From: Candidatus Geohabitans tengchongensis
GTDB lineage: Bacteria; Sysuimicrobiota; Sysuimicrobiia; Sysuimicrobiales; Humicultoraceae
Assembly (NCBI GenBank): GCA_031459625.1
Contig: JAVKIH010000007.1
Span: 11,800-75,799, forward strand
Length of the DNA stretch: 64,000 nucleotides
Direction: 5' to 3'
Below the pieces are notes generated by a model. That model did not search any database. It was given only the letters and a program-made list of their open reading frames with translations, and had not been told where the DNA came from. Below, piece after piece: positions 27,989-61,608 of this stretch (within the stretch, counting starts at the first letter, position 1; every line of letters starts with the position of its first letter). Made by a program: the position numbers and the translations under genes.

Positions 27989-28735
27989 TCACCCGAAGTA
28001 CCACCGGACGAGGGAGGCCCCCCAGAACAGCCCTGCCAGGCTGCCGAGCGCGAGGAAGGGGCCGAAGGGGATGGCGTCCTTCCGCCGGCGTAGTCCCAGC
28101 AGGATCAGGGCGATGCCCACGAGCCCCCCGGCGAGGAAGCTGAGGAAGAGGGCAGCGGCGATGGTCGGCCATCCCAGGAAGAGGCCCATCACGGCGGCCA
28201 GCTTGACGTCACCGCCGCCCATCCCGCCCCGGCTGACCACAGCGACGGCCAGGAAGAACGCTCCGGCCCCCACGCCGGCCAGGACCCGCTCCGCCAGGGC
28301 GGCGGGGCCGTCGGGCAGCGCCAGCAGCAGGCCCGCGGCCATCCCCGGGTAGGTCACGGCGTTGGGGATCAGCCGGTGGTCCAGGTCGACGAACACGACG
28401 ACCACCAGGATCAGCACGAAGAGGGCGGCGCGCAGGCCCTCCCAGGTGGGGCCGAAGGCCCGCCAGACCGCCACGAAGAGCAGGGCCGTCAGCGCCTCCA
28501 CCAGCGGGTAGCGCCACGAGATGGCCGTCCCGCAGTGGCGGCAGCGGCCCCGCAGCAGGAGGAAGCTGAGGAGCGGCACGTTGTCCCGCGCGGCGATGGG
28601 GTGGCCGCAGGCCGGACAGCGCGAGCGCGGGGCCACCACCGACTCCCGGCGCGGCACCCGATAGATCACCACGTTGGCGAAGGAGCCCACCATGGCTCCC
28701 ACCACCGCCGCCACCAGCCCCTGCACGGCCGTCAT
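27989..28735 (-). CDS. pilD: Prepilin peptidase
   Basis: GSFANVVIYRVP, SRCPAC..GRCRHC, DLDHRLIP, GGGDVKL, IPFGPFL. Confidence 0.95.
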   Translation of the reverse strand: MTAVQGLVAAVVGAMVGSFANVVIYRVPRRESVVAPRSRCPACGHPIAARDNVPLLSFLLLRGRCRHCGTAISWRYPLVEALTALLFVAVWRAFGPTWEGLRAALFVLILVVVVFVDLDHRLIPNAVTYPGMAAGLLLALPDGPAALAERVLAGVGAGAFFLAVAVVSRGGMGGGDVKLAAVMGLFLGWPTIAAALFLSFLAGGLVGIALILLGLRRRKDAIPFGPFLALGSLAGLFWGASLVRWYFG

Positions 28736-37723: not shown

Positions 37724-37735
37724 GCCCCTGCCGGC

Positions 37736-39787: not shown

Positions 39788-39812
39788 CGTCGAGGTCACC
39801 TCTCCTCCTGGC

Positions 39813-40901: not shown

Positions 40902-40904
40902 GGG

Positions 40905-41540
40905 CTAGCGGTGGTACGCCCCCCGCAGGATGGCCGTCGTCATGCGCACGACGCAGATGGCCTCGTCGGGCAGGGCTGCAGGGTCGAGCTGGCAGGAGAC
41001 GTGCGGTGGGGGCCGGCGCGTTGTCCCCTCGCCCGGCACGGGACGGGCGCGGAAGTAGACCTCGACCGTCACCCAGCGGACCCGGTCGTCCACCGAGGGG
41101 TCCTCGTCGCGCGCGCAGTCCGGGGCGTAGGGGGAGGCGCCCGGGAGGCTCGGCTCGACGTTCCAGGCCGGCAGGAGGAGCGCCTCCTGGCCCGCCCGCG
41201 CCGTCACCGCCGCCTCGTTCACCAGGATCCGGTAGCTGTACGCCCCGAAGGGCGCCGCGAATGGGATCGGGGGATCGCTGGGGTTGGGCGGGGTGTTGGC
41301 GATGGCGCAGAAGGCGTTCCGCCAGCCCACGCGGGTCGTCTGGGCCTCCACCGACGTGCGCAGCTGCTCCAGTTGACGTGCCGCCAGTCCCGTCGCCACC
41401 GTCACGCTCCCGCCCTGGGCGGTGACGCTGAGGATCGTGAGGAAGGCCCGGGTGATCAGGAGGATGACGGCCGCCAGCAGCGACAGCGCCACCAGGATCT
41501 CGATGAGCGTAAATCCCCGCTGGCCTCTCATCCGGCCCAT
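40905..41540 (-). CDS. PilV-like minor pilin
   Basis: QRG|FTLIEILV; GGAGGGG RBS; paralog of 36435 gene. Confidence 0.85.
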   Translation of the reverse strand: MGRMRGQRGFTLIEILVALSLLAAVILLITRAFLTILSVTAQGGSVTVATGLAARQLEQLRTSVEAQTTRVGWRNAFCAIANTPPNPSDPPIPFAAPFGAYSYRILVNEAAVTARAGQEALLLPAWNVEPSLPGASPYAPDCARDEDPSVDDRVRWVTVEVYFRARPVPGEGTTRRPPPHVSCQLDPAALPDEAICVVRMTTAILRGAYHR

Positions 41541-41783
41541 CCCGGCTCCCCTCCCGAAGACCGTGCCCCGTTGGCGTGCGCTCCAGACCGTCCCCCGCGC
41601 TCCCCGAGGCGACATGCCCGGCCGGGGGAGGCCCGATCCGCACGCCGGCCGGGCTGCCGCCCGGTATGGGAAACGGCCGGTTCCGGTGGATTTTCCGGGG
41701 GTGGTCAGGCGTCTGTCCGTCCGCCGGATGGCGGCGCCCCTGGGCCCCACCAGGGCTGGGTGTGGTGACGATCCCCTCCGGCG

Positions 41784-43655: not shown

Positions 43656-43659
43656 GGAA

Positions 43660-44496
43660 TCAGCGCGGGTAGCCGGCGGGCGCGTGGGTGGGGGCGGGGG
43701 CGGGTCGCTCCTCCGTGGAAGCGGTCTCGTCCTCCGGCACGGCCTCGCCCGAGCCTGGCGGCCGCTCTCCCCTAGCCCGGGCGGAGGGCTGCGCTCGGTC
43801 ATCGGCGGTGAGCGCCGTCACGGGCCGAGGGGTGGGCCGCCAGGAGAGATCCCGTCCGGGTTCACCGGCGAGCGGCTCGGTCGGAACGGGCGAGGGGAGC
43901 TCCGCCACCCCGACGTTGCGGAGGAGGATGTCGGCCGGTGTGGTCCTGCGCACGCCCCTCCCGCCGGGGGAGGCCGTGGTCACCTCGACCTGCAGGCGGG
44001 CCACCTCGCGGGCGTGGGCGGGCTGCCCACCCTGCGCGGTCAGGTACCGGAAGGTGAGCTGGGCGACGCCGGAGGCGAGCACCGCCTCCTGGCCGTCCTG
44101 GCGGCGCACCACCTCCTGGCGCCGCGGGTCGTACCGGAACTCCACCCCGTAGGGGCGGCCCGGACGGATGGGATTGGCGGCGGGGATGCGCAGCGCCACC
44201 CGGTCGGGGCACAGGCCGGTTGCCCCGCACCCGGCGAGAGGCAGGATCGCTTCCGCCCACCGGACTTCCTCGCCCAGCCGCTCGGCCACGAGGCGCCCCG
44301 CCTGCTGGGCATCCAGGGCATCCTCCACCAGTCCAAAGGACTGCATGGCGGTGAGGACCAGGCCGTAGACCCCCGCCAGGGCGACGGCCACGACGGCCAG
44401 GCCGACGACGATCTCGATGAGGGTGTAGCCGGCATCGCTCCCGGAGCGCTCGGCGTCGCCTCGGTCGAGTTCGCAGCCCCGGCGCATGGCGGGCAT
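43660..44496 (-). CDS. PilW-like minor pilin (no PT array)
   Basis: AG|YTLIEIVV, EEVRWAE, CPDRV..IP..NP shared with paralogs. Confidence 0.82.
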   Translation of the reverse strand: MPAMRRGCELDRGDAERSGSDAGYTLIEIVVGLAVVAVALAGVYGLVLTAMQSFGLVEDALDAQQAGRLVAERLGEEVRWAEAILPLAGCGATGLCPDRVALRIPAANPIRPGRPYGVEFRYDPRRQEVVRRQDGQEAVLASGVAQLTFRYLTAQGGQPAHAREVARLQVEVTTASPGGRGVRRTTPADILLRNVGVAELPSPVPTEPLAGEPGRDLSWRPTPRPVTALTADDRAQPSARARGERPPGSGEAVPEDETASTEERPAPAPTHAPAGYPR

Positions 44497-44701
44497 ATCC
44501 CCTCCTGACGCGGCCGGTCTCTGGGCGCACGCAGGAGCCCGGAGTGGCGGGGATGGGGAACCGTGGAGGGAGCGTAGCACGGGACCTTCCTTAAACCTAC
44601 TACCGGATCAGCCAGAACCCTCCTCCCCCCCGGCCCCGGTCCTGGCGGAATCCCGGTCCCGTTCCGGCGTATCCTCAGGACAACGGCCTCCGGAGCCGAG
44701 C

Positions 44702-44731
44702 GAGGGACGCGTGGAGGAGGGACGCGTGGAG
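44702..44731 (+). repeat. 15-bp perfect tandem duplication spanning RBS and GTG
   Basis: GAGGGACGCGTGGAG x2. Confidence 0.9.
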
Positions 44732-45988
44732 ACCGGCGAGGTCGCGGAGGAGACGAGGGAGGCGCTGAGGGAGCCCTCACACGCGCTCGAACGCAGGAGC
44801 CGCGGGCGGCCCGCCGGCTCCGCGGCGCAGGTGGACGCGCGCCGCACAGCGGCAGAAACCTTGCTCGTCTTCGCCGCCGTCCTGGCCGTCTACCTGGCCG
44901 CTACGCCCCGGACGAACCAGGCCTACCGCCACTTCGTCTACCAGGCGGACGCCTTCCTCCACGGCCACGTCGACCTGCGCGGCCTCCCGGCGTACTACCA
45001 CGACGTCGTCCACCTGGATGGGAAGGTCTACGCCCCCTTCCCCCCGGTGCCGGCCGTCCTCCTCCTCCCTCTGGTGGCGGTGGTGGGGACGGACCTGGAC
45101 CAGGGGCGGGTCGGGCAGGTATTGGCCGCGCTCGCCGTCGCCGTCTTCACGGCGGGGCTGCGCCGGCTGGGACTGCCCCGGGCGGTGCGCCTGTGCACCG
45201 CGGCGGCGCTGGCCTTCGGGAGCGTGCTGTGGCCTGCCACGGCCATCGGCACGACCTGGTTCTTCGCCCAGGTGGTCGTGGTGCTGGCGGCGGCGGCGCT
45301 GGTCTGGGAGCTGGCCGGGCCGGCTCGAGGCGCGGTGGCAGGTGCACTCCTGGCGGCAGCCTGGCTGAGCCGGGTGAGCCTGCTCCCGGCAGCGCCGGCG
45401 GTAGCCCTGTGCCTCTGGACCCGCCACCGCCGGCCTACAGCCCTGTGGGCCTTCGCCGCGGTGCAGGTCGTGGGGCTCCTCATCTATCTGGCCTTCAACC
45501 AGGCCCGTTTCGGGGACCCCCTGCAGCTCGGGTACCGCCTCCTCTCGATGGGGGCGCCCAACGCGGAGGCGGTGGCGCGGTGGGGCTTCTTCAACGTGCG
45601 CTACATCCCCCACCACCTCTACGCCATGTTCCTCCAGGGGCCGGAACTGATGGAGGGACCTCCCTTCCTCCGCCCCTCCCCATGGGGCCTCGCCTTGATC
45701 TTCACGAGCCCGCTCGCGGCGCGGCTCCTCTTCACGCCGCCACCCCCGGAGGTCTGGTGGCCGTGGGGCGCTGTCGTCCTCTCGCTCGTGCTGCCGATGC
45801 TGGCCTACTTCTCGGTGGGGTGGGTGCAGTTCGGGTACCGCTACAGTCTGGACTGGTGGGTCTTCCTGCTGGTGCCGCTGGCCTACGCGCTGCGGCCCGC
45901 GCCACGCGTGGTGGACTACCTGCTGCTCGCCGCCGGGATCGCCATGAACGCGCTCGGCGTCTACTGGGTGCAACGGCTGGGGTGGTGA
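44711..45988 (+). CDS. Polytopic membrane protein, probable GT-C glycosyltransferase (start uncertain)
   Basis: Many TM segments; QADAFL.G, Y.PFPP.PA, N.ARFGDP, QFGYRY..D. Confidence 0.65.
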   Translation: MEEGRVETGEVAEETREALREPSHALERRSRGRPAGSAAQVDARRTAAETLLVFAAVLAVYLAATPRTNQAYRHFVYQADAFLHGHVDLRGLPAYYHDVVHLDGKVYAPFPPVPAVLLLPLVAVVGTDLDQGRVGQVLAALAVAVFTAGLRRLGLPRAVRLCTAAALAFGSVLWPATAIGTTWFFAQVVVVLAAAALVWELAGPARGAVAGALLAAAWLSRVSLLPAAPAVALCLWTRHRRPTALWAFAAVQVVGLLIYLAFNQARFGDPLQLGYRLLSMGAPNAEAVARWGFFNVRYIPHHLYAMFLQGPELMEGPPFLRPSPWGLALIFTSPLAARLLFTPPPPEVWWPWGAVVLSLVLPMLAYFSVGWVQFGYRYSLDWWVFLLVPLAYALRPAPRVVDYLLLAAGIAMNALGVYWVQRLGW

Positions 45989-47286
45989 GCGTGACCGGGA
46001 GTCCGGCCGGCCCCGGCCTCGTGGCGGACCCGCTCCCCGAGCCACCCGAGCGCCTCCCTGCGGCGTCGGCGCAGGCGCGCCGTCTGTGGGTGTGGCTGGC
46101 GGTGGCCGCGGCCCTGCGCGTGGCCATCCTGCCGCACGGGGGCTTCCCGTCGGACATCGCCTCCTTCAAGGCGTGGGCGGCCACGCTGGCCGAGCACGGG
46201 CCCCGCGGCTTCTACGGCCGGGGGTTTGCCGACTACCTGCCCGGCTACCTGTACGTGCTGTGGGGCGTGGGTGAGCTGACGGCCGCCCTCCGCCTCAACG
46301 ACGCCGCTGCGCTCGTCCTGCTGAAGCTCCCCGCCGCGCTCGCCGACCTCCTCGGTGCGGCGGTGGTGCTGCGGCTCGCCCGCCGCGTCCTGCCGGAGGC
46401 GGGCGCGGTGACCGTGGCCGTCCTCTACCTCCTCCACCCCGCGCTGCTCTTCACGACGGCCTACTGGGGACAGGCCGACAGCGTGGGCGGGCTCCTGGGG
46501 GCGGCCGCCCTGTGGCTGGCGCTCCAGGGCCATCTGCTGGCGTGGAGCGTGGCGGCGCTGGCCGTCCTGGCCAAGCCGCAGACCGCACCGCTGCTGGGCG
46601 TGATGGGGGTCCTGCTGCTGCGCCGGGCGCTGTGGCCGCCCGAGCGTCCTCCCGCATTCCGGCCGCAGCCCGGCCCCGTCGCCGCGGCCCTCCCCCTCTT
46701 CCTGGCCACGGCCGTGCTGGTCGCCGCCCCCTTCGGGGTCGGCCTGCTCGGCCTGCTCCACCTCCTGCGCAGTGCCGCCGAGGTCTACCCCTACGGGAGC
46801 GTCATGGCCTTCAACCTGTGGGGGGCCGTGCAGGGGTTCTGGCAGAGCGACCTCGCGCCGGTGGCGGGCTGGCCGCCGCTGCAATGGGGGATCGCGCTCA
46901 CCGCGGTGGCGCAGGCCGTGGTGCTGTGGGCGGTGTGGCGCCGTCCCGACGAGCGCACCGTGGTGACCGGTGCCGCCACGGCGCTCACGGCCGCCTTCCT
47001 CCTCCCCACGCGGATCCACGAGCGCTATCTTCTGCCGGCCCTCCCCTTCCTGCTGGTGGCGGGGGCGGCCGACCGGCGCGTCCGGCTCCCCGCCGGGCTC
47101 CTCAGCCTCGTCCTGACGCTGAACCTGCTCTACGCCTACACCCGTCCCTACCTGCAGACGGTGACGCTGCCGGGGTGGCTGGAGGCCACACTCTTCAGCC
47201 CGCCGGCCACCCGGGTCCTCAGCGCCCTGGCGGCAGCGACCCTGCCGCTCCTGCTGCGGGCGCTCGTCCTCCCGCCGCGCTCCTGA
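45985..47286 (+). CDS. GT-C membrane glycosyltransferase (mannosyltransferase-like)
   Basis: D...F..W, DYLPGYLY, KLPA..AD, WGQADS, KPQ, HERY motifs; many TMs. Confidence 0.75.
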   Translation: MSVTGSPAGPGLVADPLPEPPERLPAASAQARRLWVWLAVAAALRVAILPHGGFPSDIASFKAWAATLAEHGPRGFYGRGFADYLPGYLYVLWGVGELTAALRLNDAAALVLLKLPAALADLLGAAVVLRLARRVLPEAGAVTVAVLYLLHPALLFTTAYWGQADSVGGLLGAAALWLALQGHLLAWSVAALAVLAKPQTAPLLGVMGVLLLRRALWPPERPPAFRPQPGPVAAALPLFLATAVLVAAPFGVGLLGLLHLLRSAAEVYPYGSVMAFNLWGAVQGFWQSDLAPVAGWPPLQWGIALTAVAQAVVLWAVWRRPDERTVVTGAATALTAAFLLPTRIHERYLLPALPFLLVAGAADRRVRLPAGLLSLVLTLNLLYAYTRPYLQTVTLPGWLEATLFSPPATRVLSALAAATLPLLLRALVLPPRS

Positions 47287-47965
47287 GCTGCCAGTACAGG
47301 CGGAACAGGTCGTAGAAGGCCCGCAGGATCACCCGGAGCCGTCCGCCGGTCTGGCGCCCGGCCCGCCGCGGCCGGTGGGAGACCGGGACCTCGGCGAACC
47401 GCGCCCCGGCCCGTCGCGCCCGGGCCAGCAGTTCGGCCGTCATGAAGGCGCCGCGCGACTCCAGCGGCAGCGCGCGCACCAGGTCGCCGCGCAGCAGCTT
47501 GAACGCGCAGTTCACGTCCCGCACCCGCACGTCCAGCAGCGCCGCCATGAGCCGCCGCCACAGCGCGGCGAACCAGCGGCGGTGGAGCGGGTCGGCGCGG
47601 TGGACGCGGTAGCCCAGGACAAAGTCCGCGCCCTCGCCGGCGGCGGCGAGCAGCCGCGGCAGCTCCGCCGGGACGAACTGCCCGTCGGCGTCCATCAGGA
47701 GGATCCAGGTCCCGCGGGAGGCGGCGAAGCCCGTGCGCACCGCCGCACCGTACCCCTGGTTGCGAGCGTGGCGCAGCAGGTGCACCCGCGGGTCAGCGCG
47801 CCCCAGGGCCTGGGCCGCGGCCGTCGTCCCGTCGGTGGAGCCGTCGTCGACGATGAGCACCTCGTAGGACCGCCCGGTGGCCGCCAGCGCGGCGGTGAGC
47901 TCGCGCACCGTGCGCTCGAGGTTGGCCGCCTCGTTGAAGGCGGGGAGGACGGCGCTCAGATCCAC
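47219..47965 (-). CDS. GT2 polyprenol-phosphate glycosyltransferase (DPM1-like)
   Basis: PAFNE, VDDGSTD, N.GYG.A, MDADGQF, DVNCAFK. Confidence 0.88.
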   Translation of the reverse strand: MDLSAVLPAFNEAANLERTVRELTAALAATGRSYEVLIVDDGSTDGTTAAAQALGRADPRVHLLRHARNQGYGAAVRTGFAASRGTWILLMDADGQFVPAELPRLLAAAGEGADFVLGYRVHRADPLHRRWFAALWRRLMAALLDVRVRDVNCAFKLLRGDLVRALPLESRGAFMTAELLARARRAGARFAEVPVSHRPRRAGRQTGGRLRVILRAFYDLFRLYWQLRSAAGGRAPAAGAAGSLPPGR

Positions 47966-49164
47966 GTCCCGAACCACATCAGCCGCTGGAAGCGCGCCTG
48001 GGCCAGGGGCAGTGCCGACAGCAGTGGGTAGTAGGCGACGAACCACAGGGCGGCCGCAGCCAGGTAGAGGCCCACGACGGCCGGTCCGGCCCGCGCGCGC
48101 CCGCGGGCCAGGGTCAACGCCAGGGCCAGCACCATGAACGGCAGGGCGGGGAGCATGTGGTAGAGGAAGAGCGCCCGGCCGATGAAGACGTACGGGAGGT
48201 AGCTGGCCAGGAATCCGGCCAGGACGAAGGTGCCGGCCGGTGTGCGACGGCGTACCGTCTCCCACCCCAGGAGGAGGAAGGCGGGCAGCGCCGCCCACCA
48301 CACCACCACGTTGCCGAGCGCGATGATGCCGCGCACCTGCCCGCCGCCCAGGTCCTGGTAGTCGTACCAGATCGGCCGCACCAGCAGGGGCCACGACCAC
48401 CACGCCGACTGGTACGGGTGCGTGGCGGTGAGCCCGGCGTGGAAGCGGAACATCCAGACGTGGAAGCGCGCCCACTCCCCGAGGTCGTGCCCGCGCAGGA
48501 AGTAGGGGGTCCAGGCCAGGAGGTAGACGAGGAGCGGCACAAGGCCGTAGGCCCCGGCCAGGTGGGCCCAGTGCCGCCGTGGCAGGCGCGCCCACCCCTG
48601 CCACAGCAGCAGCGCCAGGAAGAGCGGGATCACCCCGAGCGGGGCCGCCCCTGTCCACTTCGTGGCCACGCTCATCCCCGCGGCCGCCCCCGAGAGGTAC
48701 AGCCACCCGACCCGGCCCGACCGCAGGTAGCGCCAGAACGCCCAGTAGGCGGCGACGAGGAAGGTGACGAGGAAGATGTCCGGCTTGGCGATGCGGCTCT
48801 CCACGAAGGCCAGACCGTCCAGGGCCAGCAGCACCGCCGCCATGGCTGCGGTGGACGCGCTGCCGGTGACCTCGCGGGCCAGGAGGAAGACGAGGAGCAC
48901 GAGCAGGGTCCCGCTCACCGCGGGGGCCAGCCGCCACCCCAGCGACCGGTCGCCGGCCACCGCCATGCCGGCGGCGATGAGGAGCTTGCTCATGGGCGGG
49001 TGGGTGATCTCTTCGGTGATCTCCTGCCCGGCCAGGTACTGGCGTGCCGCCTTGGCGTAGTAGATCTCGTCGAAGATCATGGCGGGCGGCTCGGCGAGGC
49101 GGAAGGCGCGGACGCCGCCGGCGAAGAGCAAGACGGCGGCGAGCAGGACCAGGGGACGCGACAC
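47956..49164 (-). CDS. Protein O-mannosyltransferase-like (PMT/GT39)
   Basis: FDEIYY, HPPMSK, GWRL, SRIA..D, KW, HPYQS.WWSWP..RP, GN.VVWW, FLYH. Confidence 0.85.
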   Translation of the reverse strand: MSRPLVLLAAVLLFAGGVRAFRLAEPPAMIFDEIYYAKAARQYLAGQEITEEITHPPMSKLLIAAGMAVAGDRSLGWRLAPAVSGTLLVLLVFLLAREVTGSASTAAMAAVLLALDGLAFVESRIAKPDIFLVTFLVAAYWAFWRYLRSGRVGWLYLSGAAAGMSVATKWTGAAPLGVIPLFLALLLWQGWARLPRRHWAHLAGAYGLVPLLVYLLAWTPYFLRGHDLGEWARFHVWMFRFHAGLTATHPYQSAWWSWPLLVRPIWYDYQDLGGGQVRGIIALGNVVVWWAALPAFLLLGWETVRRRTPAGTFVLAGFLASYLPYVFIGRALFLYHMLPALPFMVLALALTLARGRARAGPAVVGLYLAAAALWFVAYYPLLSALPLAQARFQRLMWFGTWI

Positions 49165-49200
49165 CGACTTGGGTACGGAGGTGAGCGGCTCGATTGTCCC

Positions 49201-49461
49201 TCAGGACGGCGGGCTGTCAGGCGGCAGCGCCTGCCCGTGGACGACCCGCCAGACCCCGGCCGCCCGCGCCACGTCGTGCTCGTCCACCACCGCAGAGACT
49301 TCGGCCACGAGGTATCCCTCGGCATCCCGCACCCGCAGGCGCCCGCGCACGACCACATCGGCGAACAGCAGGGCCTGGAGGTCGGGGAGGGGCACCTGCC
49401 GGCGTTCGGCCTCGTGGGCCAGAGCAGCCTCTAACCTGTCGACACGGGCATCCAGCGCCAT
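49201..49461 (-). pseudogene. Internally deleted paralog of the 52446 coiled-coil/nuclease-like gene (ORF still open)
   Basis: Shares ARVDRLEAAL, ADVV.RGR, YL.AEVS.V.D..DV.RAA, GVWRV but lacks two long internal blocks. Confidence 0.65.
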
Positions 49462-49478
49462 GGCGGATCTCCGGGCCC

Positions 49479-49507
49479 ATCCTAGAAGTGGGGGCTGGGG
49501 GTGTCAA
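49479..49507 (-). promoter_or_regulatory. Near-consensus sigma-70 promoter
   Basis: Minus strand TTGACA-N17-TAGGAT. Confidence 0.75.
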
Positions 49508-49543
49508 ATGAGCTCGACGATGCGCTATGCGAACCGTCGAGGA

Positions 49544-52243
49544 TCAGGGCCCGACCTTGGTGGAGGAACCGTCGGCGAAGAGCGTCACCAGGATGGACTC
49601 GCCGGCGACCAGCCCGCACTTCATCGGCCGGCCCCCGCCGGCCTGACCGGTCGCCCGCATCTGAATCTCTGTGGCGGTGCCACCCGGCGGGACGATCTCG
49701 TACGCCCAGCACGAACCGGAGGTCGGGGGTGGCACGAAGCCGAGCTGGGCCGGGTCGGTGATGCCGACCCACGTGTCGTACTCCTGGTAGTGCATCCAGG
49801 CGAAGCGCTTCAGCTCGATGAGGACCTGGTGGGCCTCGGCGGCCAGGGCCCCCTCCCGGGCGCCCAGGTACCGCGGCAGGGCCAGTGAGAGCAGGACCCC
49901 CAGGATGGCCAGCACCACCACCAGCTCGACCAGGGTGAAGCCGGACGCTGCGGGATCGGGTCCGTCGCGGCCAGGGCCACTCCCCGCAGGCCCGCCCTGT
50001 CCCCTGCGCAGCCGCCCGCGCCACCTTGTGACGCCCCGGGCCGTCGCGGCCTTGGCTGCAGCGCGCGCCGTTACCGCGTCGGCCGCGGCGCGGATCGCCT
50101 CCAGGTGGTGCGGCGTGATGCGCGGTCCGTAGAGCGCCTCCTCCACCACGGCCGTCATCCTCCTCACCTCCGGCCAGCCCAGCGCGCGCTCGGCCCGCCC
50201 GGCGAACTCCCGTGGCGTCTCCGCCTCGCCGCGCGCCAACCCGCGGCGGCGCAGCACGCGCAGGCAGCGCGCATACTCCGCCAGGACGCCGTCCCGCGGG
50301 TCGGCCGGCCGTCGACGACGCCCCATCCGGGCCCCGACCAGGATGATGAGGATCAGGAGGAGTGCGGCCTGCGCTGCCGGGGCCCATAGAGGGGATGCCC
50401 ACCCCGGCCGCCCCGCAGACCCGTCGGGGTGCCCCGGCCAGCGCGTGCGCAGGTAGCGGGCCAGCCCCTCGAAGCCCCACCGCGGCGCCGTCCGGGGCAG
50501 CGCCGCCGGCTCGGCGAACCCCGGTGTGGGCTCGAACTCCACCCAGCCGACCTCCGGGAAGAAGACCTCGACCCAGGCGTGCGCGTCGCTGCTGCGCACC
50601 TCCAGGAGCCCGGTCAGCGGGTGGAAGGTGCCGGGTGTGTACCCGGTGGCGAGCCGCGCCGGGACCCCCACCAGGCGCAGCAGAACAGCCATGGCGCTGG
50701 CGAACTGCTCGCAGTACCCCCGCCGCTCCTCGAAGAGGAAGTAGTCCACCGCGTCCCCCGGCCGGCGCTGCGGCGGGATGGTGAGGTCGTAGCGGTAGTG
50801 CGTCCAGAGGTACCGGTTGACCCGCAGGGCCCGCTCGTAGGGGGTGCGCGCGCCCGCCGTGATCGCCTCGGCCAGCCGCCGGACCCGCTGCGGCACTGTG
50901 TCGGGCACCTGCAGGTAGCGCGCCAGGAGCTCGTCCGGGTAGCGGTCGCCGGCGGCGGCCAGCCGGGCCGGCGTGGGGTCGACCACGCGCGAGACGACGG
51001 TGTAGATCATCCCCGGCTCGAGCACGAAGGGGAGCCGCACCGCCGAGTAGCGGTCGACGAAGACGTGCCGCCCCGGGAAGTAGACCTCCTCCACGCGGGG
51101 GGCGGCGAAGGCGACATTGGGCTGTTCGCGCTCGACGTAGAAGGTCTGGATCAGGCGCCGTGCCCCCCGCGACGAGGCGTAGCTGTCGTCGCGGCCGCGG
51201 AGGACCTCGATGGGAGGGACGACGGCGGTGTGGCGGCGTACCCGGTCGTCGCCGATGCGCCAACCCGTCCCGGTGTAGACATCGAAGACCAGCGCCCGCC
51301 ACAGCCGCGGCTCCCCGGCGCGCACGCGCATGACCAGGGCGTCGTTGAGCCGACCGCGCAGCCGCAGCTCCACGGTGGGACTGAAGCCAAAGTACCCGTG
51401 CGGGTTGAAGACGGTGGTGCCGCCCGCCGTGCCCGCGGGGTAGGCCGGGTTGACCACCTCGCCGTCCAGCGTCGGTCCCAGCGGGACGCGCGGCGTGAAG
51501 GGGAACGAGGTGATGAAGAGGCCGTCCAGGCGCGGGGTGGCCAGGAAGACCACGACGGCGAGGGCCGCCAGCGGCACCGCGGCGCGCACGGCCGAGCTGC
51601 CGGTCTCGCGCAGCCCCGCCAGGACCCGCAGGCCGCTCCCCACGCGGCCCCCCTCCGTCGCCCTTTCCGCAGCCGGCGCGGGCCTCCCGCCTCCTGCCGC
51701 CTCGCGCGCCGCCTCGGCGGCATTCAGCATCAGCGCCGCGACGGCGGCCACCAGGTAGGGGGTCAGGTAGAGGGCAAAGCGCAGGTCCAAGCTGAAGGCC
51801 GCCGCCACGGCCATCAGCACCAGCGAGGTGAGGAGGCTGAAGAGCAAATCGCGCCGGCGCGGCAGGTCGAAGCTGTGCAGCACCTGCAGCCACAGCAAAA
51901 AGACGGTGAGGGGGATGCTGGTGTGGTACGGCGCCGCCGCCAGCGCCCGCAGGAAGGCCCACCCGGCGAGGAGGCACCCCAGGGCCAGCGCCGCCTTCAG
52001 CCAGGTGTTGCGCCGCCGGCGGCGGTACCAGGAGACGACGAACCCGCAGGTGGCCAGGGCCAGCATCTCCCAGCGCAGAGTCCCGAAGTCCTGGTGCGCG
52101 GTGATGGCCAGGATGCTGAGGAGGACGCAGAGGTAGACCCACACGCGCAGCGCCCCTGAGCCCGTGCTGGGAAGATGCGCGTGGTCTGCCGGACCGGCCG
52201 GTGCGGTCGGGCTGCCGTTCCGTGCCAGAGAACGCCGCGGCAT
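49544..52243 (-). CDS. TgpA-like membrane transglutaminase (DUF3488-TGase-DUF4129-like) fused to a C-terminal type IV pilin
   Basis: N-terminal TMs; GYCEQFASAMAVLLR..GVPAR..GY, AHAWVEV, WVEFEPTP; TM; ETPREFA..YG; then in-frame SG|FTLVELVVVLAILG pilin (49544-49939). Confidence 0.85.
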   Translation of the reverse strand: MPRRSLARNGSPTAPAGPADHAHLPSTGSGALRVWVYLCVLLSILAITAHQDFGTLRWEMLALATCGFVVSWYRRRRRNTWLKAALALGCLLAGWAFLRALAAAPYHTSIPLTVFLLWLQVLHSFDLPRRRDLLFSLLTSLVLMAVAAAFSLDLRFALYLTPYLVAAVAALMLNAAEAAREAAGGGRPAPAAERATEGGRVGSGLRVLAGLRETGSSAVRAAVPLAALAVVVFLATPRLDGLFITSFPFTPRVPLGPTLDGEVVNPAYPAGTAGGTTVFNPHGYFGFSPTVELRLRGRLNDALVMRVRAGEPRLWRALVFDVYTGTGWRIGDDRVRRHTAVVPPIEVLRGRDDSYASSRGARRLIQTFYVEREQPNVAFAAPRVEEVYFPGRHVFVDRYSAVRLPFVLEPGMIYTVVSRVVDPTPARLAAAGDRYPDELLARYLQVPDTVPQRVRRLAEAITAGARTPYERALRVNRYLWTHYRYDLTIPPQRRPGDAVDYFLFEERRGYCEQFASAMAVLLRLVGVPARLATGYTPGTFHPLTGLLEVRSSDAHAWVEVFFPEVGWVEFEPTPGFAEPAALPRTAPRWGFEGLARYLRTRWPGHPDGSAGRPGWASPLWAPAAQAALLLILIILVGARMGRRRRPADPRDGVLAEYARCLRVLRRRGLARGEAETPREFAGRAERALGWPEVRRMTAVVEEALYGPRITPHHLEAIRAAADAVTARAAAKAATARGVTRWRGRLRRGQGGPAGSGPGRDGPDPAASGFTLVELVVVLAILGVLLSLALPRYLGAREGALAAEAHQVLIELKRFAWMHYQEYDTWVGITDPAQLGFVPPPTSGSCWAYEIVPPGGTATEIQMRATGQAGGGRPMKCGLVAGESILVTLFADGSSTKVGP

Positions 52244-52445
52244 GGGCTCCACGATGCTCTGGGACTTCCTCTGAGGCCCGCGTTCAGGGGCGGCCGGACC
52301 CCTTGCCGGCCCTGGCAAGGGCGTCCGTCGGGACCGGCCGGTCACAGGCCCCCCGAAGTCCATGCCCAACTCGCCGATGGTTTTCTCGAAGTCGCCTTGT
52401 CCCGGGTAGGTCTGTGCTACGCTACGCGTGAAGGGAATCTGGACC

Positions 52446-53024
52446 ATGCTCGAGGCCCGTGTGGACAGGCTGGAAGCTGCCCTGCAGCGCCTTGCGGAGG
52501 CTCAGGCCCAGCTGACCGCCACCGTCGCCGAGCTCGCCCGGCGCCTGGACCAGCTGACCGCCAGGGTGGATCGGATCGACCAGCGGGTGTCCTGGCTCGT
52601 GGGCGACGCGCTGGAACGCCGGTACCGGGAGCGGGCCCACGCATACTTCATGGGGTTCCTAACCCGCCTCGAGGTAGTGACGGGAGACGAGCTGGCCCGC
52701 CTCGCCCACGACGCCCAGCGGCGCGGAATCCTCTCCGGGCCCGAGCACCAGGACCTCCTCCTCGCGGATGTGGTGGCGCGAGGGCGCCGCCGCGACCAGG
52801 AGACGGACGCCTACCTGCTGGCGGAGGTCTCGGTGGTGATTGACAAGGGAGATGTGGAGCGTGCGGCTCGGCGGGCGGCCCTCTGCAAGCGCGTCGTCGG
52901 AGCGCCCGTGCTCGCCGTCGTGGCCGGAGAACAGATCCTCCCGGACGCCGAGCGCGAGGCTACGCTGGCCGGCGTGTGGCGCGTGCTCGACGGACGTGCC
53001 GTGAGCCCGGGTGGCAGCGCCTAG
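52446..53024 (+). CDS. Coiled-coil protein with putative PD-(D/E)XK-like C-terminal domain
   Basis: Heptad N-terminus, G.ALE..Y, ADVV.RG, AEVS..D..DV.RA; TGcTACGCT extended -10 at 52415-52423. Confidence 0.7.
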   Translation: MLEARVDRLEAALQRLAEAQAQLTATVAELARRLDQLTARVDRIDQRVSWLVGDALERRYRERAHAYFMGFLTRLEVVTGDELARLAHDAQRRGILSGPEHQDLLLADVVARGRRRDQETDAYLLAEVSVVIDKGDVERAARRAALCKRVVGAPVLAVVAGEQILPDAEREATLAGVWRVLDGRAVSPGGSA

Positions 53025-54022
53025 CCAGACCGGGCATCCGGAGCCACGACCACCACTTCCTCCACGCCCGTCCCGCCGGGCTCTGTCGCCACGAGGACCA
53101 GCGTGCAGTCTCGTGCGATCGCCCGGCCCGCACTCACTGCCACGGAACGGTCCGGCCCCCCTCCCTGCCAGCGCGCCAGGGCGTCCCACTGCCCTTCCCA
53201 CCGGTCGAGCGCGACCGGCCGTCCCGTGGGACCCGGCAGGATGAGGCGGGCCGGATGGCCGCGCGCCATCGCCGTCCGCAGCAGCGAGGCCGCCGCCCTG
53301 GCCGCGGCGTCGAGCGTCTCGCGGGGCGCTGTGGCCGGCGCGTGCAACAGGACAGCCAGCGTGCGCGGCGGAGGAGCTTCCAGCTCCTTCACCATGAGCC
53401 GCGCCCGTCGGGCCGTGGCCCGCCAGTGGATCAACCGCGCGGGGTCGCCCGGCCGGTGTTCCCGCACCGTCCCCGGCTCACCCTCCTGGGCCCAGCGCGG
53501 TGCGCCTCCCGTACTACCTAACCCTGTCCCTGCCGGCAAGGCCGGGAGGAGGTGAGCCCGTGGCCGCACGACGACCTCGACGTCCACCGGGCAGGCGGTG
53601 CGGGCGCGCGCCAGCCCGAGCAGGCCGGGCGAGGCGATGCGGAGGACACGCAGCCGGTGCGCGCCCCGCGGTAGGCCCGAGAAGGAGAGTGACGCCTGTC
53701 CATGCCATCCCCGAGGCGTCGAGGGCAGCGCCACCCGCCCCACGCACCCGGCGATGTCCCCCTCGACCAGGAGCGCCCACCCGCGCCCTCGCCTCCTGAT
53801 CTCGAGCGGGACGGCCACCGGTTCCCCCTCGACCACAGGCGGCACAGCGCGCACCTCGACCACCAGGCCGCGCACGCCGCTCCGCGCACTCCACCACCCC
53901 ACGACGAGCGCGGCGAGCAGGACCCCCATCAGGAGGAAGAGCCACCCGGCCTGCAGGTTCGTGGCCAGGAAGAAGAAGAACCCGGCCAGGGCGAGGGTGA
54001 CGGCCCCCTCACGCGTCGGCAC
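53021..54022 (-). CDS. DUF58 domain protein
   Basis: N-terminal TMs; VREHRPGDP.R.IHWRATAR..LMVKE; directly after MoxR. Confidence 0.9.
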   Translation of the reverse strand: MPTREGAVTLALAGFFFFLATNLQAGWLFLLMGVLLAALVVGWWSARSGVRGLVVEVRAVPPVVEGEPVAVPLEIRRRGRGWALLVEGDIAGCVGRVALPSTPRGWHGQASLSFSGLPRGAHRLRVLRIASPGLLGLARARTACPVDVEVVVRPRAHLLPALPAGTGLGSTGGAPRWAQEGEPGTVREHRPGDPARLIHWRATARRARLMVKELEAPPPRTLAVLLHAPATAPRETLDAAARAAASLLRTAMARGHPARLILPGPTGRPVALDRWEGQWDALARWQGGGPDRSVAVSAGRAIARDCTLVLVATEPGGTGVEEVVVVAPDARSG

Positions 54023-54995
54023 GGCGCCGCGCCACGCGCGATTCCTCCGCCGCGGCGGTGTGCAGGGGGACGGGCACGTCTCTGAGGAGACGCTCCACCA
54101 CACCCGCCCCGGCCGCCTGTCCCTCGCCGGGGCCCTCCTCCCGCAGGACGAGCCGGTGCACCAGGACCGGGACAGCCAGGGCCTTCACGTCGTCGGGGAG
54201 GACGAAGCTGCGCCCCTGCAGTGCCGCCCGCGCCTGGGCCGCACGCAGCAGGGCGATCCCCGCCCGCGGGCTGCACCCCAGCACCACTTCCGGTGCAGCA
54301 CGCGTCCGCCGGACCAGCTCCAGCGCGTAGCGCCGCACCGCCTCGCTGACGTGCACCGTGCGCACCTCGCGCTGCAGCGCCACCACCTGCTCGACGGTCA
54401 CCACTGGCTCCAGGGTCTCGATGGGGTGGGCGGCGACGTGCGAGGCTAGCATGCGGAGTTCGTCGTCGCCGCTCGGGTACCCCAGCGAGGTGGCCACCAT
54501 GAAGCGATCGAGCTGCCCTTCGGGCAGGGGGAAGGTGCCGTGGTGCTCGACGGGGTTGAGGGTGGCCAGGAGGAAGAAGGGGCGAGGCAGCGGGTGGCTG
54601 CGCCCCTCCACGGTCACCTGACCCTCGTCGAGGGCCTCCAGGAAGGCGGCCTGGGCGCGCGGGGTGGCACGGTTGAGCTCGTCGGCCACCACCACGTGGG
54701 CGAAGAGGGGCCCGGGGACGAAGCGCAGCTCCCCGGTGCGCGGGTCCAGGATGGCGCTGCCGGTGATGTCGGCGGGCAGGAGGTCGGGGGTGCACTGCAC
54801 CCGCGAGACCTCGCCGCCGATAGAGCGGGCCAGCGCCCGCGCCAGCATCGTCTTCCCCACGCCGGGGACGTCCTGCAGCAACGCGTGCCCGCCGGCGAGC
54901 AGCGCGATAACCACATGCTCAACGGTCTGGCGCGTACCGAAGATGACGCGCTCGATGTTGGCGACGAGGTTGCTGATGGCCATCTCTTCCGGCAT
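54009..54995 (-). CDS. moxR: MoxR family AAA+ ATPase
   Basis: DVPGVGKT, RVQCTPDLLPADITG, DELNRA.PR.Q.A, GTFPLPEGQLDRF, SPRA. Confidence 0.94.
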   Translation of the reverse strand: MPEEMAISNLVANIERVIFGTRQTVEHVVIALLAGGHALLQDVPGVGKTMLARALARSIGGEVSRVQCTPDLLPADITGSAILDPRTGELRFVPGPLFAHVVVADELNRATPRAQAAFLEALDEGQVTVEGRSHPLPRPFFLLATLNPVEHHGTFPLPEGQLDRFMVATSLGYPSGDDELRMLASHVAAHPIETLEPVVTVEQVVALQREVRTVHVSEAVRRYALELVRRTRAAPEVVLGCSPRAGIALLRAAQARAALQGRSFVLPDDVKALAVPVLVHRLVLREEGPGEGQAAGAGVVERLLRDVPVPLHTAAAEESRVARRRADA

Positions 54996-55071
54996 GATTA
55001 GGTCTCTGGCGGGCACGAAGGGACCTGCCGGTGGTCTGCCGACAGAGGTCATGCGAAGCCTCCAGGTCTGT

Positions 55072-55545
55072 TCAACGCCCCTCCGCCGTCCGGGCCAGGC
55101 CGTCCCTCCGTCCGGCGGTTCGCTGCCAGGTCCACACATTGTGGACAAGGTAGTTGAAGCCGCCCCCCACGCCGATGGCCAGCATGTTGGCCCCCAGGAG
55201 GGGCAGGGGGATCCGGGTCAGGACGGTGAGGGTGCCCAGGTAGATCAGGTTGCCCAGGCCCGTCGTGGCATAGTACCGCAGCAACCGTTTTCCCTTGGCC
55301 CTCCATCCCCGAGAGCGGCGGTCCGACCACGTGAAGGCGTCGTTCAGGAGGAAGTTGGTGAAAGTGGACACCACGGCGGCGAGGGCACCTCCGACCGGTG
55401 TGGCCAAGGTCCCAACCCCTGTCGCCAGCCAGAGCACCAGCGAGTTCACCCCGATGCCCGTCAACCCGACAAGGAGAAACCGCACGGGACGCACCCGCAG
55501 CGTGGGGACGAGCAGCCGTCGGATCGCCGGGAGTGGAGACGCCAT
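55072..55545 (-). CDS. GtrA-family polyprenol-phosphate-sugar translocase
   Basis: RFLLVG..G..VN, NFLLN..FTW, FNY....WTW; four TMs. Confidence 0.88.
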   Translation of the reverse strand: MASPLPAIRRLLVPTLRVRPVRFLLVGLTGIGVNSLVLWLATGVGTLATPVGGALAAVVSTFTNFLLNDAFTWSDRRSRGWRAKGKRLLRYYATTGLGNLIYLGTLTVLTRIPLPLLGANMLAIGVGGGFNYLVHNVWTWQRTAGRRDGLARTAEGR

Positions 55546-55568
55546 CGTGGCCCAGGATACCACCGGGT

Positions 55569-57041
55569 TCAAGGTCCCCCTCCCCACCCGGGGGTCCCGT
55601 CATGAGCTCCTGCTCCTCCCTGAGAGGTATGTTCGCCCCCGGGGAGGTGGCGGACACTCAGCGCCAGCCCTGCGACCGTCCAGAAGACGTTGGCCGGGCC
55701 GATGTGACTCCAGGCTGATTGCAACCAGAGGGCATAACCGGCCAGTCCGGCAAGCAGGCCCGTGCCGACGCGTTGGGCCTCCCCTCCGGCCCGTACCGTC
55801 GCCAGGAGGGAGCGGAGAACGACGAGCCAGATCCACAGGTAGGCCGCCAGACCGAACAGCCCGGCACTGAAGGCGATGTGCAGCACCTCGTTGTGCGCCG
55901 TGTCGATCCCGGACAGCGCGAACCCGTACAGCTCGAAGTACTCACGGGAGCCAAGACCGGGGAGACGCCCGGCCAGGCTGGAGAGGCCCCAGCCAAACAG
56001 CGGGCGATCCGCGATAAGAGGAAGGATGTGCTTCCAGACAAAGAGCTTCATCCGCAGGGAGTTGTCCGTGCCGAGGTCTCCAGTAGTCCGCCCGACCAGC
56101 TCGCCTCCCGGACCGGTCAGCGTCAGCAGGATCGTGAGGGCCCCGAGGCATGCGCCTACCCCCAGCGCCGGTTTCCGGGGCATCGGGTGGCGGGGCGGGC
56201 GGACCACCAACACGAGGACGGCCAGCACGAAGCCGGCAAACGCGGCTCGCGTCCCCGACGCCACCAGGGCGCCGTACACCAGCGCCAGGATCCCAAGGAG
56301 GAACGACCGGCGCGCGCGTGCCTCGCTGCTGGTCAGGAGGGCTGCCAGCAGCACCGGGATCAGGAGCAGCGTGTACCCGCCCAGGAAGACGGGGTTCCCA
56401 AGCGTGGCGAATGCTCGCCAGCCGAAGTAGGGACGTCCCCGTGATGGGTCGGGGATGACCCCAAAGAAGGCGGCGGGGTCCACCGGCCGGAACCCCACCC
56501 AGCCCAGCGGGTCCGCTCCATAATATTGTGCCAGCCCGATGGCCCCGATGAGGGCGGCACTGGCCACGATGACTTTCAGCACAGGCTGCAGACGCTGTGG
56601 AGGCAGGCGTGTGGCCGTCCAGGCCATGAGGAGGTAAGCGACATAGGTGAGGAAGCCGTCACCGCGGCTCCTGGACGGAAAGAAGCTCAAGAAGGGCCGT
56701 GGGGCCAGGAGCGTGGCGAGGGCCATCGCCAGCAGGAACGCCACCAGGGGAAGGTCCAGGCGCGACCGAGAGGCCCGTATCCCTCCGCGCCACAGTCCGT
56801 ACAGACCGACGAGGCTGAGGAGCGCTGAGAGCAGGGTGAAATCGACTTTGAGGTCATTGGTCGGCATGAGCGGGGCGACCGCGGCGAAGCCGATGAGCCC
56901 GGCCTGCACAGCACCCCATCCGACCGCCGCGGCGCGCGCCCGCTCCGTGACACCGTCAGCCATTCGCCCGACCGACGGGGCCGCCCGCAGCCCAGTGCCG
57001 ACCCACCGGCCGCGCAGCCCTGGGGCATTAGAAACCGGCAT
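55569..57041 (-). CDS. O-antigen-ligase family (Wzy_C) protein, candidate pilin O-oligosaccharyltransferase
   Basis: Multi-TM; ATLGNP..LGGY, SGTRAA, RPLFGWG, AHNE.L..GLFG. Confidence 0.82.
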   Translation of the reverse strand: MPVSNAPGLRGRWVGTGLRAAPSVGRMADGVTERARAAAVGWGAVQAGLIGFAAVAPLMPTNDLKVDFTLLSALLSLVGLYGLWRGGIRASRSRLDLPLVAFLLAMALATLLAPRPFLSFFPSRSRGDGFLTYVAYLLMAWTATRLPPQRLQPVLKVIVASAALIGAIGLAQYYGADPLGWVGFRPVDPAAFFGVIPDPSRGRPYFGWRAFATLGNPVFLGGYTLLLIPVLLAALLTSSEARARRSFLLGILALVYGALVASGTRAAFAGFVLAVLVLVVRPPRHPMPRKPALGVGACLGALTILLTLTGPGGELVGRTTGDLGTDNSLRMKLFVWKHILPLIADRPLFGWGLSSLAGRLPGLGSREYFELYGFALSGIDTAHNEVLHIAFSAGLFGLAAYLWIWLVVLRSLLATVRAGGEAQRVGTGLLAGLAGYALWLQSAWSHIGPANVFWTVAGLALSVRHLPGGEHTSQGGAGAHDGTPGWGGGP

Positions 57042-57792
57042 GGAACGGCCTCCCGTCACGGTGCAGGACGCCTCGCGGCAGGAGCAGGCGCAGGTACGCC
57101 CCGAGCGTCTGACCGAGGCGGATCTTGCTCCGCCCCTGCTTCCGGTCGTACCTCAGGTCCAGCGGGACCTCTCGCACGCGAGGGCGAAACGGTCGAAGCT
57201 TCACGAGGAGCTCGGGCATCACGGCAAATCCTCGTGTCTCCACCAGACGGTTCCCGTAGTGCGCCAACGCCTGCCGGAGCAGCCCCGCCCGGCAGGCCCG
57301 ATACCCTGAGGAGTAGTCCCTGACGCCCGGAAGGCGAAACCGGAGCGTGAGTACAACCCTCGCCTGCCAGCTGAGAAACCGGCGCAGCAGAGGGACCCCG
57401 CGCTGCCGACCTCCGGGCGCGTATCGCGAGGCGATCACGACGTCGGCACCGTCCTCAAGGGCCCTGGCCATCGCAGGGAGCAGCCCCGGTGGGTGGGTGT
57501 TGTCCGCATCCATCGTGGCGATGACGTCCTGCCGATCTGCCTGGGCCAGGATGTCGCGCAGCCCGGTGAGGAGCGCAGCCGGAAGCCCCCGGTTCTGCTC
57601 GTGCCCGAGAACCCGGACCGGCAGACGCGCAGCGGCGGCGAGGGCCACCCGGCGCGTCTCGTCCGTGCTCCCATCGTCGACAACGACGATCCGGTAAGGG
57701 ATCCCGCTGCCCCGCAGGGCTCGGTCAATCTCCCCGAAGAGCGCGGGGAGGTTGCGGGCTTCGTTGTACGCGGGCAGCAGAACCCAGATCAC
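57028..57792 (-). CDS. GT2 polyprenol-phosphate glycosyltransferase (DPM1-like)
   Basis: LPAYNE, VDDGSTD, MDADNTH, ASRY, DYSSGYR. Confidence 0.88.
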   Translation of the reverse strand: MIWVLLPAYNEARNLPALFGEIDRALRGSGIPYRIVVVDDGSTDETRRVALAAAARLPVRVLGHEQNRGLPAALLTGLRDILAQADRQDVIATMDADNTHPPGLLPAMARALEDGADVVIASRYAPGGRQRGVPLLRRFLSWQARVVLTLRFRLPGVRDYSSGYRACRAGLLRQALAHYGNRLVETRGFAVMPELLVKLRPFRPRVREVPLDLRYDRKQGRSKIRLGQTLGAYLRLLLPRGVLHRDGRPFHAGF

Positions 57793-59342
57793 GACGAGCT
57801 CTCCTGGTGCTGGTGGCGGCGCGAGAGCCAGAGGAACAGGTAGACCCGGTGGAAGTCCCGACCCCAGGCTTCGACGAAGTGGGGGGCCAGCGTCTCGCCG
57901 AGGCGCCGGCGTGTCGGGTAGCCCAGGGGCAGCGTGGCCACGATCCACAGGCGGGGGTGGCCGGCGGCCAGCGCCTGGACCCGACGCGGCGCCAGGGGAC
58001 CCCCCGGTCCCGTTGCGGCTGGAGCCAGGACCTCGCCGGGGTCCAAGGCCATCGAAGGGATCCTGCGCGGCAGGTAGTACGTGACGACCTCCGCCCCGGA
58101 CGCGGGGACGAAGAGCACGATATCACCCGGTCTTAGGTGCGCGTCCAGGTAGCGCGCGGCGGCCCGCCAGTCCCCGTAGCCGGGCACCCGGTAGTACTCG
58201 CTCAGGACGGGGACCACACTCGACACCGGGAGCACCAGCAACGCCGCCAGGGCCCGCCGTTTGTCGGCAAACCCGGCCGCCAGTGTCCACATCCCGCCGG
58301 CCAGGGCCAGGGCGACCGCCGGCAGCACGAACGAGAAGTAGCGGGAGTAGAAGACGTTCCACCTGAGGGAAACCAGCCCGGCCAGCCCGAGCGGGACGAG
58401 CGTGCCGAGGGCCAGGAACCACGCCGAGGATCGGCTCGGGCAGGTGGCGATGCCGTAGGCCGCGAGGAGCGCAAAGGGCAGGAGCAGCGGGGCGGTCAGC
58501 ACGAACCCGGTCGTCCCGACCGTGTAGTACGTTCCCAGCCCGTAGAGCCGGCCGCCGAAGGCCAGCAATCCGAGCAGGTCGGCGAGGGTCTGCAGCGTGA
58601 GCGGAGGTCGGAACGACGGCCATCCGCGCCCGTCGGCCAGCTGCTGCAGCAGCGCGGGCACCCAGGGAAGGTAGAGCACCCCCACCCCCACGGCGCATGC
58701 TGCGAACATGGCGAGGCGAGACCGTGACAGCCGGGTGCGGGCGAGGAAGAGCACGTGACCGGGGAGGACGAAGAACGCCAGGTAGTGCGTGTACAGCGCC
58801 AGCAGCGTGGACAGGCCGTACGCCAGCAGCCACCGGGCACGTCCCTCCTCGACCCACCGGAAGAGGGCGAGGCCCGCGGTCCAGACCCACACCGCCAGCC
58901 AGGGGTACATCCTGGCTTCCTGGCTCGCCTGCACGTGGAACGGCGAGATGGCTAGCAGGAACGCCCCCAGCAGCCCCACTTGAGCGGAGATCAGTCGCGC
59001 ACCGAGGAGATAGGTGAGCCCGACAGTCAGTAGACCGCCGAGTACGGAGAGGAGCCGCAACCGAAACTCCGTATCGCCCACGAAAGTCATCCATCCGCGT
59101 AGCATGAAGTAAAAGAGCGGGGGATGCGCATCCCGCTGGGCGACGAGGGTGATGATCTGCGCCAGGGGATGACGGGCCACGAAGACGCTGTACAGTTCAT
59201 CGAAGGAGAGGGTCTTGTGGTCGAGGGCGTACAGGCGCACCGCCAGCGCCAGGAGGAGCGCCGCCATCAGCAGGAACGACGTCCGGCGCTCCCCTCCGGT
59301 GCGCCACCCCGGCTGCGCGACGCGGACCGCTGGCACCATCAT
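57789..59342 (-). CDS. GT39/PMT_2-like membrane glycosyltransferase
   Basis: FDELYS, HPPLFY, LRLLS, QEARMY, YTHY, LPW.P, DWR.AA. Confidence 0.85.
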   Translation of the reverse strand: MMVPAVRVAQPGWRTGGERRTSFLLMAALLLALAVRLYALDHKTLSFDELYSVFVARHPLAQIITLVAQRDAHPPLFYFMLRGWMTFVGDTEFRLRLLSVLGGLLTVGLTYLLGARLISAQVGLLGAFLLAISPFHVQASQEARMYPWLAVWVWTAGLALFRWVEEGRARWLLAYGLSTLLALYTHYLAFFVLPGHVLFLARTRLSRSRLAMFAACAVGVGVLYLPWVPALLQQLADGRGWPSFRPPLTLQTLADLLGLLAFGGRLYGLGTYYTVGTTGFVLTAPLLLPFALLAAYGIATCPSRSSAWFLALGTLVPLGLAGLVSLRWNVFYSRYFSFVLPAVALALAGGMWTLAAGFADKRRALAALLVLPVSSVVPVLSEYYRVPGYGDWRAAARYLDAHLRPGDIVLFVPASGAEVVTYYLPRRIPSMALDPGEVLAPAATGPGGPLAPRRVQALAAGHPRLWIVATLPLGYPTRRRLGETLAPHFVEAWGRDFHRVYLFLWLSRRHQHQESSS

Positions 59343-61052: not shown

Positions 61053-61478
61053 TTAGAAGTTGCAGCCCTGAGTGGATGAACCGTCGTTGTTCAGGGTGAC
61101 GGAACACACGTCGCCGGGCTCGACTGGAGCGCCTCCCGACAAGCCGGACATGTCCCACCGGATGCTGCTGGCTGACCCGCCGCCCGCGCCGATCGTGGGG
61201 GTCGTCCAGGCGGTGCCGCCCGGCATGACTAAGCTGATGTCGCCGATGGCCGAGGGGAACTGGCTGTACTCCTGGTAGTAGGCCCAGGAGAGGGTCTTGG
61301 CCTCTTGGAGGATGTTGTCCGCCTCAGCCTTGTACGCGCGCTTGCGGGCGCCGAGGTAGCGGGGCACGGCGAGCGCAAGCAGGATGCCCAGGATGGCGAG
61401 CACGACGACCAGCTCGATGAGGGTGAAACCGCCCTCAGTGCCGGCCCGCCGCTTCTGCTGCCAGAAGAACCGAAGCAA
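61053..61478 (-). CDS. pilA: Probable major type IV pilin
   Basis: TTG start after GGGAGG; basic leader, GG|FTLIELVVVLAILGILLALAVPRY; C-terminal Cys pair; follows pilC. Confidence 0.88.
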   Translation of the reverse strand: MLRFFWQQKRRAGTEGGFTLIELVVVLAILGILLALAVPRYLGARKRAYKAEADNILQEAKTLSWAYYQEYSQFPSAIGDISLVMPGGTAWTTPTIGAGGGSASSIRWDMSGLSGGAPVEPGDVCSVTLNNDGSSTQGCNF

Positions 61479-61608
61479 CGATACCGACCTCCCTTCGTGC
61501 TTTCGTGAGTCCCCTCTCCCTGCGGCCGGCTCCCTCCGGGGCGCGCCCACAGGGTCCTACCCTCCACTGCGGCCAGGTCCTCCTGGCCCGGCCATCACCT
61601 CCCACCCC

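Follow-up and report, generated by a model that had tools for sequence, protein, structure and literature searches.

It is known that the type IVa major prepilins (PilA/PilE), which are processed by PilD, share Gly-1, Phe1, Glu5, Pro22, a hydrophobic helix and the pilin fold, with the signal placed, according to the available part of PMC3244431, within the first ~35 residues. The processing requires Gly-1 and PilD alone and no other protein, as far as the accessible text of PMC6497953 goes, and the recognition of its site by PilD is local in the accessible portions of PMC10191384 and PMC6497953. TgpA of Pseudomonas aeruginosa (PA2873; PF11992 + PF01841; PDB 6g49) has N-terminal helices, an extracytoplasmic Cys/His/acid core and one further helix, with MoxR and DUF58 genes upstream; its predicted topology has five helices at the N-terminus and places the domain in the periplasm (PMC3507681, in the portion available). 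In archaea, type IV pilus loci are linked to transglutaminase-family genes of unknown role, which are separate genes, with no fusion reported in the part of PMC4858521 at hand. Here we analyse a stretch of 64,000 nucleotides from Candidatus Geohabitans tengchongensis (the window; contig JAVKIH010000007.1), in which the two kinds of protein share one frame: the 899-aa open reading frame (ORF) at 52243..49544 of the minus strand reads without a stop from a TgpA-like transglutaminase (TGase) into a type IVa pilin, whose signal thus stands far into a polytopic protein, at residue 768, or, if a nested start is used, 73 residues into a shorter product. We propose a model of one gene with two in-frame starts and one PilD cut, which, taken as a whole, we regard as only just probable.

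From stop to stop the same frame has 985 open codons. In order along the minus strand, on which all features of the gene lie, it encodes the TgpA_N region (residues 39-425, 50969..52129), the transglutaminase core (Transglut_core, residues 456-572, 50528..50878, with C511, H555 and E571), a membrane helix (residues ~620-638, 50330..50386), DUF4129 (residues 657-721, 50081..50275), a fast-evolving basic/Gly-Pro linker (residues 723-767, 49943..50077), the predicted PilD site G768/F769 (49937..49942, with E773 as Glu5) and a complete, 131-aa mature PilA-type pilin (49544..49939, with C845 and C876). The Pfam matches, among them N_methyl at residues 767-789, are each above the curated cut-off, and so is TIGR02532 at the cleavage site, which bears out the uninterrupted ORF of a preliminary description of this DNA. 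M1 has no Shine-Dalgarno (SD) sequence and one database gene call begins at V34; the gene calls of P0003 and P0004 begin at the Met equivalent to M1. The same description had considered an indel or a lost stop in the linker. Contigs of four runs, rather than reads, were compared with the window, the runs containing the fusion DNA being hot-spring metagenomes. The contigs of runs X1, X3 and X4 (one study, possibly the source of the assembly) cover the whole stretch with 0 differences, and the contig of run X5 (a second study), covering 49731-52400, has 84 substitutions and a sole indel, an in-frame insertion of 6 nt within the linker, with no stop created by the 35 of the 84 substitutions that are visible. 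The in-frame transglutaminase-pilin fusion is real and is not an assembly error.

Most likely, the pilin has its own nested start and no need of the enzyme. The candidate start (50156..50171, minus strand) consists of the near-perfect SD GGAGGTGA (50171-50164), 5 nt and the ATG of M696 (50158-50156), from which translation is predicted to give a prepilin of 204 aa, 73 of them forming a hydrophilic leader. The preliminary description had found no start codon at 49940-50100, and indeed no in-frame ATG, GTG or TTG occurs between codons 701 and 768, but M696 and the GTG codons 699/700 lie just outside the part that it had searched. The SD duplex energy is -15.4 kcal/mol at M696 versus -3.6 kcal/mol at M1, which places M696 among the strongest 0.6% of the 1500 internal ATGs that were sampled and the strongest 1.4% of 282 inferred starts, and an 8-nt SD match such as this one precedes 11 of 6502 internal in-frame ATGs. 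M696 is common to all alleles seen, and the SD and ATG are kept in both DNA alleles, the window and metagenome contig L062, the latter having two GTA codons, which are rare (1.6% of Val), immediately after the ATG. In the 43 unfused rows, Leu or Ile mostly occupies this position, with ATG in two, TTG in two and the 8-nt SD match in none. Geobacter sulfurreducens PilA reportedly has, likewise, two in-frame starts, giving a long and a short isoform and one mature pilin; by contrast, the upstream start here is that of another protein, a membrane enzyme of 768 residues.

The sister lineage P0156 also bears on this point. It comprises six database proteins (P0156, P0186-P0190) on contigs of 3.7-29.6 kb, the gene calls of which begin at V549 (four records), M640 or M696, all downstream of the catalytic C511. 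P0156 has 13 private changes in the 145 residues ahead of M696 and 0 in 160 residues (696-723 plus the pilin), whereas the other branches together have 11 changes before M696 and 10 after it (Fisher two-sided p 0.005). The changes E569K, R666H, F680S and L598P hit conserved sites, several of the 13 falling at positions conserved in 71-100% of 31 orthologues. Most simply, P0156 would be read as having an inactivated enzyme gene from which the nested pilin continues to be expressed. Taken together, a strong SD-ATG 73 codons before the cut site and the decay of P0156 with an unchanged pilin indicate that the enzyme is dispensable for pilin production. Two suggestions of the preliminary description, release of the pilin 1:1 with the enzyme and tethering of the enzyme by the pilin, are not supported in a strict form, in which the ratio would be fixed or the tether required.

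Turning to the pilin half, Gly-1/Phe1, Glu5, Pro22 and a 21-residue hydrophobic tract are present, and the predicted fold supplies the long helix and antiparallel sheet: the AF2 model of residues 769-899 is a pilin fold with pLDDT 94, and the top 10 Foldseek matches of this model are all type IV pilins (T4a), the best at E 2e-3 and TM 0.65, none at E<=0.001. Gly-1 and Glu5 are invariant across the alleles, in contrast to the drifting linker. PilD, PilC, PilM and PilQ are present in the genome, with PilB/PilT-family ATPases on the same contig. The pilD gene (27989..28735, minus strand) lies in the same cluster and encodes the sole A24 peptidase found in the genome, in which neither the CxxC pairs of the methylase nor the two Asp motifs are impaired. 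What the long protein lacks is an N-terminal signal with a short hydrophilic leader, the closest shared start lying 73 codons upstream of the site, and the nested product itself has a short leader only loosely. Both halves belong to known families, the pilin falling short in its N-terminal signal unless the nested start is used. The fused pilin shares ~50% identity with free pilins from the same family. It was considered as a duplicate of the genome's own PilA, which is rejected, since in the tree it falls outside the clade containing that PilA; it clusters loosely with pilins of other genera (midpoint root, long branch). The free-standing PilA behind pilC (61053..61505, minus strand) is not its sister.

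The transglutaminase core aligns with P. aeruginosa TgpA at E 4e-22, with C511 and H555 matched and E571 in place of the Asp of TgpA, Glu being common at this third catalytic position among orthologues. TgpA_N, Transglut_core and DUF4129 are joined by upstream MoxR ATPase and DUF58 genes (53021..54995, minus strand), the usual partners of TgpA-type genes, an antisense gene sitting between DUF58 and the TGase. Unlike P. aeruginosa TgpA, the window TGase, whose activity is a predicted one, has Glu as its third catalytic residue, a gene in a pilus/glycosylation cluster and an in-frame pilin. It is also noted that residue 551 (50591-50593, minus strand), four residues ahead of the catalytic His, is Ser in the window TGase and Asn in 31/31 orthologues. 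In the hydropathy profile the enzyme domain is preceded by five clear helices and by two weaker ones that have runs of Arg on their flanks. Because the N-terminal helix count is odd with or without the weaker pair, and because the later helix at ~620-638 is followed by the positive-inside RMGRRRRP, the TGase domain most likely lies outside and DUF4129 and the linker in the cytoplasm, with the pilin helix running in-to-out. The hydropathy and charge counts thus fit the cytoplasmic linker proposed earlier, and an in-to-out helix is the geometry required by PilD in the available portion of PMC10191384.

The fusion recurs on L062 (P0003, 89% aa, same gene order) and in P0005 and P0004 (87% aa), and the fused alleles, being 87-97% identical, show that it is not a one-strain accident. 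Thus, of the possibility raised before that all close relatives encode TGase and pilin separately, the part concerning the other genera examined, all unfused, stands, but the nearest alleles are fused. At E<=1e-30, TGase orthologues are present in 28/33 other genomes of the own family, 20/22 of family f2 and 1/1 of f6, and none was found among 37 genomes of four other families (f4 0/23 and f5 0/12 included). Families f4 and f5 possess pilins all the same, which argues that the TGase is not a core assembly part. The 3' end is visible in 42 of the 49 other TGase genomes, the remaining seven being cut off or unresolved, and in 42/42, all of other genera, a stop follows 222-252 codons past the catalytic motif with no pilin. 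The fusion thus appears restricted to one genus. Genomes marked unpublished supplied G018, in the 42, and G008, in the pilin alignment and tree; no conclusion rests on them.

Between the window and L062 the dN/dS is 0.11 for the pilin (strong purifying selection) and 0.25 for the TGase, against 0.12 to 0.56 for the neighbours (MoxR 0.21, PMT 0.12), which indicates that both halves are functional. The linker is only 57% identical to L062 in nucleotides, the DNA identity resuming at TCC GGC (S767-G768), and its codon adaptation is poor.

Among the papers listed in our literature searches, which covered few of the subscription papers, none described a fusion of a TGase with a pilin or a cut by PilD at an internal site. 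Our searches for further fusions scored at most 8000 candidates or the best 150 of 38,548, a scope in which distant independent fusions are possible. There was no internal pilin motif in 149 non-self representatives (the best 150 in a 50%-cluster search) and no N_methyl domain in 14 long proteins from the same search. The motif matched in 3/166 TGase loci with a visible stop, two being the fusion itself and the third, L182, being rejected as an independent fusion because the motif match is false. Among longer proteins, 32 matched in a search with a pilin profile, three of this lineage and no other with a TGase domain. No fusion was found in viral contigs or in a first metagenome scan, and the ESM Atlas gave generic pilin clusters only, at 0.76. 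Three distant TgpA-type proteins (P0102, P0106 and P0136) carry a multi-helix membrane extension behind DUF4129, suggesting that the DUF4129 tail accepts other fusions.

Our model is as follows. In the type IVa pilus cluster, a pilin gene would have come to sit directly behind the TGase gene, which would then have lost its stop in the ancestor of the genus; the distribution is that given above, and the order of events is our reconstruction. Initiation at the 5' start would give the membrane protein of 899 aa, its TGase domain lying outside and its DUF4129 and linker inside, and initiation at the SD-led M696 would give the 204-aa prepilin with its 73-aa leader. From what is known of the family, PilD would cut both precursors at G768/F769 and methylate F769. 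The outcome would be one 131-aa filament pilin, with the long form also leaving a TGase of near-normal length. The nested start would supply the pilin independently of the enzyme, and the long form, which would not be needed, is probably a tolerated read-through from which the intact PilD of the cluster trims off the pilin.

Several points weigh against this model. The 73-aa leader of the nested product is well outside the 35-residue range of PilFind, the training pilins of which have the signal within the first 35 residues (PMC3244431, in the part available), and PilD cutting a membrane-tethered leader has no precedent in the literature examined. In P0156 Ser-2 is replaced by Pro, and the break in its enzyme part is read from gene calls, with a partial duplicate possible. 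The conserved P-E-V codons yield GGAGG regardless, and a 7-nt match is present in 7/43 unfused rows; part of the M696 SD thus comes free, which weakens the signal without removing it. In one RNA fold this SD is partly paired. Finally, the RNA run consists of contigs possibly containing DNA and hence gives no proof of expression.

It could be, alternatively, that translation begins solely at the 5' start and that PilD frees the pilin, as a minor pilin, 1:1 with the enzyme. This would likewise predict PilD cleavage of the long form, and it is consistent with a frame open in all alleles, with two observed linker indels that are both in frame, with the invariant Gly-1 and Glu5, and with the lack of a conserved start nearer than M696. 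However, a nested start also requires an open linker, and since 65-68% of linker shuffles are open as well, the stop-free linker is weak evidence. Moreover, the SD of M696 is far stronger than that of M1, and P0156 retains the pilin while its enzyme part lacks the catalytic Cys and decays. We consider this unlikely. It is also doubtful that PilD acts as a polyprotein protease on a 768-residue enzyme leader, the nested start tuning the ratio and the fusion having been selected to couple a pilus-modifying TGase to its subunit; here the TGase would cross-link or deamidate the pilin to which it is fused.

Another explanation is that the long form resists PilD and that the pilin helix anchors the TGase at the pilus base to modify pilins or glycans, whether or not a free short form is made as well. 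The position of the TGase gene, which lies within the pilus cluster in the relatives mapped and has pilD as the next gene in all 17 f2 genomes where its end is visible and in the one f6 genome, is in line with this, as is the archaeal link described in the accessible part of PMC4858521. By contrast, all 42 visible orthologues of other genera manage without a pilin tail, f4 and f5 have pilins with no TGase found, and the local recognition by PilD noted at the outset is hard to reconcile with resistance, so that we take an anchored TGase to be quite improbable. Still poorer is the case for a non-canonical or strain-specific start in the linker, with the long form degraded or rare. The codon adaptation of the linker is as expected of former intergenic DNA, and CTG745 in G000 with a weak SD, or GTG at 714, 724, 733 and 734 in L062, could serve; but only CTG745 is a start codon in both alleles, its weak SD is lost in L062, and M696 is present throughout. 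An assembly artefact or a one-strain accidental read-through, for which the confinement to one genus might speak, is refuted by contigs identical in three runs, by retention in a fourth strain and by recurrence in L062/P0003, P0004 and P0005 at 87-89% aa identity.

Around the fusion, the type IVa pilus cluster holds pilC, the free pilA, glycosyltransferase-like genes, MoxR, DUF58, the fusion, a PMT-family gene, minor pilins, pilM, pilD and pilQ. In the own family a PMT gene follows the TGase; in L022, L024, L026 and L259-L272 (families f2 and f6) pilD follows directly, in some with an ATGA stop-start overlap. A promoter-like TTGACA-17-TAGGAT at 49507-49479 (minus strand), just past the pilin stop, is kept in L062, and the downstream PMT genes are probably transcribed from a promoter of their own. 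The fusion lies between two paralogous coiled-coil genes, at 49201-49461 (minus strand) and 52428-53024 (plus strand), which are also on contig C5; the downstream one is internally deleted (86 aa in the window versus 243 aa in L062), and the upstream one, on the opposite strand, separates DUF58 from the TGase. Inside the pilus cluster, 44486-60988 is dense in PMT-like, GT2, GtrA-like and O-antigen-ligase genes and is likely a pilin glycosylation system; relatives scatter additional pilin genes through this block. At 33512-44496 (minus strand) there are two minor-pilin sets, in which two of the pilins carry long Pro-Thr repeat tails. The TGase gene beside pilD or glycosylation genes, together with the archaeal parallel, suggests that the enzyme acts on pili or their glycans.

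It should be noted that pilin screens, as given in the available parts of their descriptions, look near the N-terminus only, in the first 35 residues (PMC3244431) or for a membrane helix within 30 residues (PMC13705601), and thus miss internal pilins by design. The fusion offers a natural test of whether a leader with a free N-terminus is required by the prepilin peptidase or whether this protease also acts at sites deep in a membrane protein, and it shows how a gene can nest in frame within the tail of its neighbour. In addition, the conserved position of the TGase beside pilD or glycosylation genes provides a lead on the substrates of TgpA-type enzymes.
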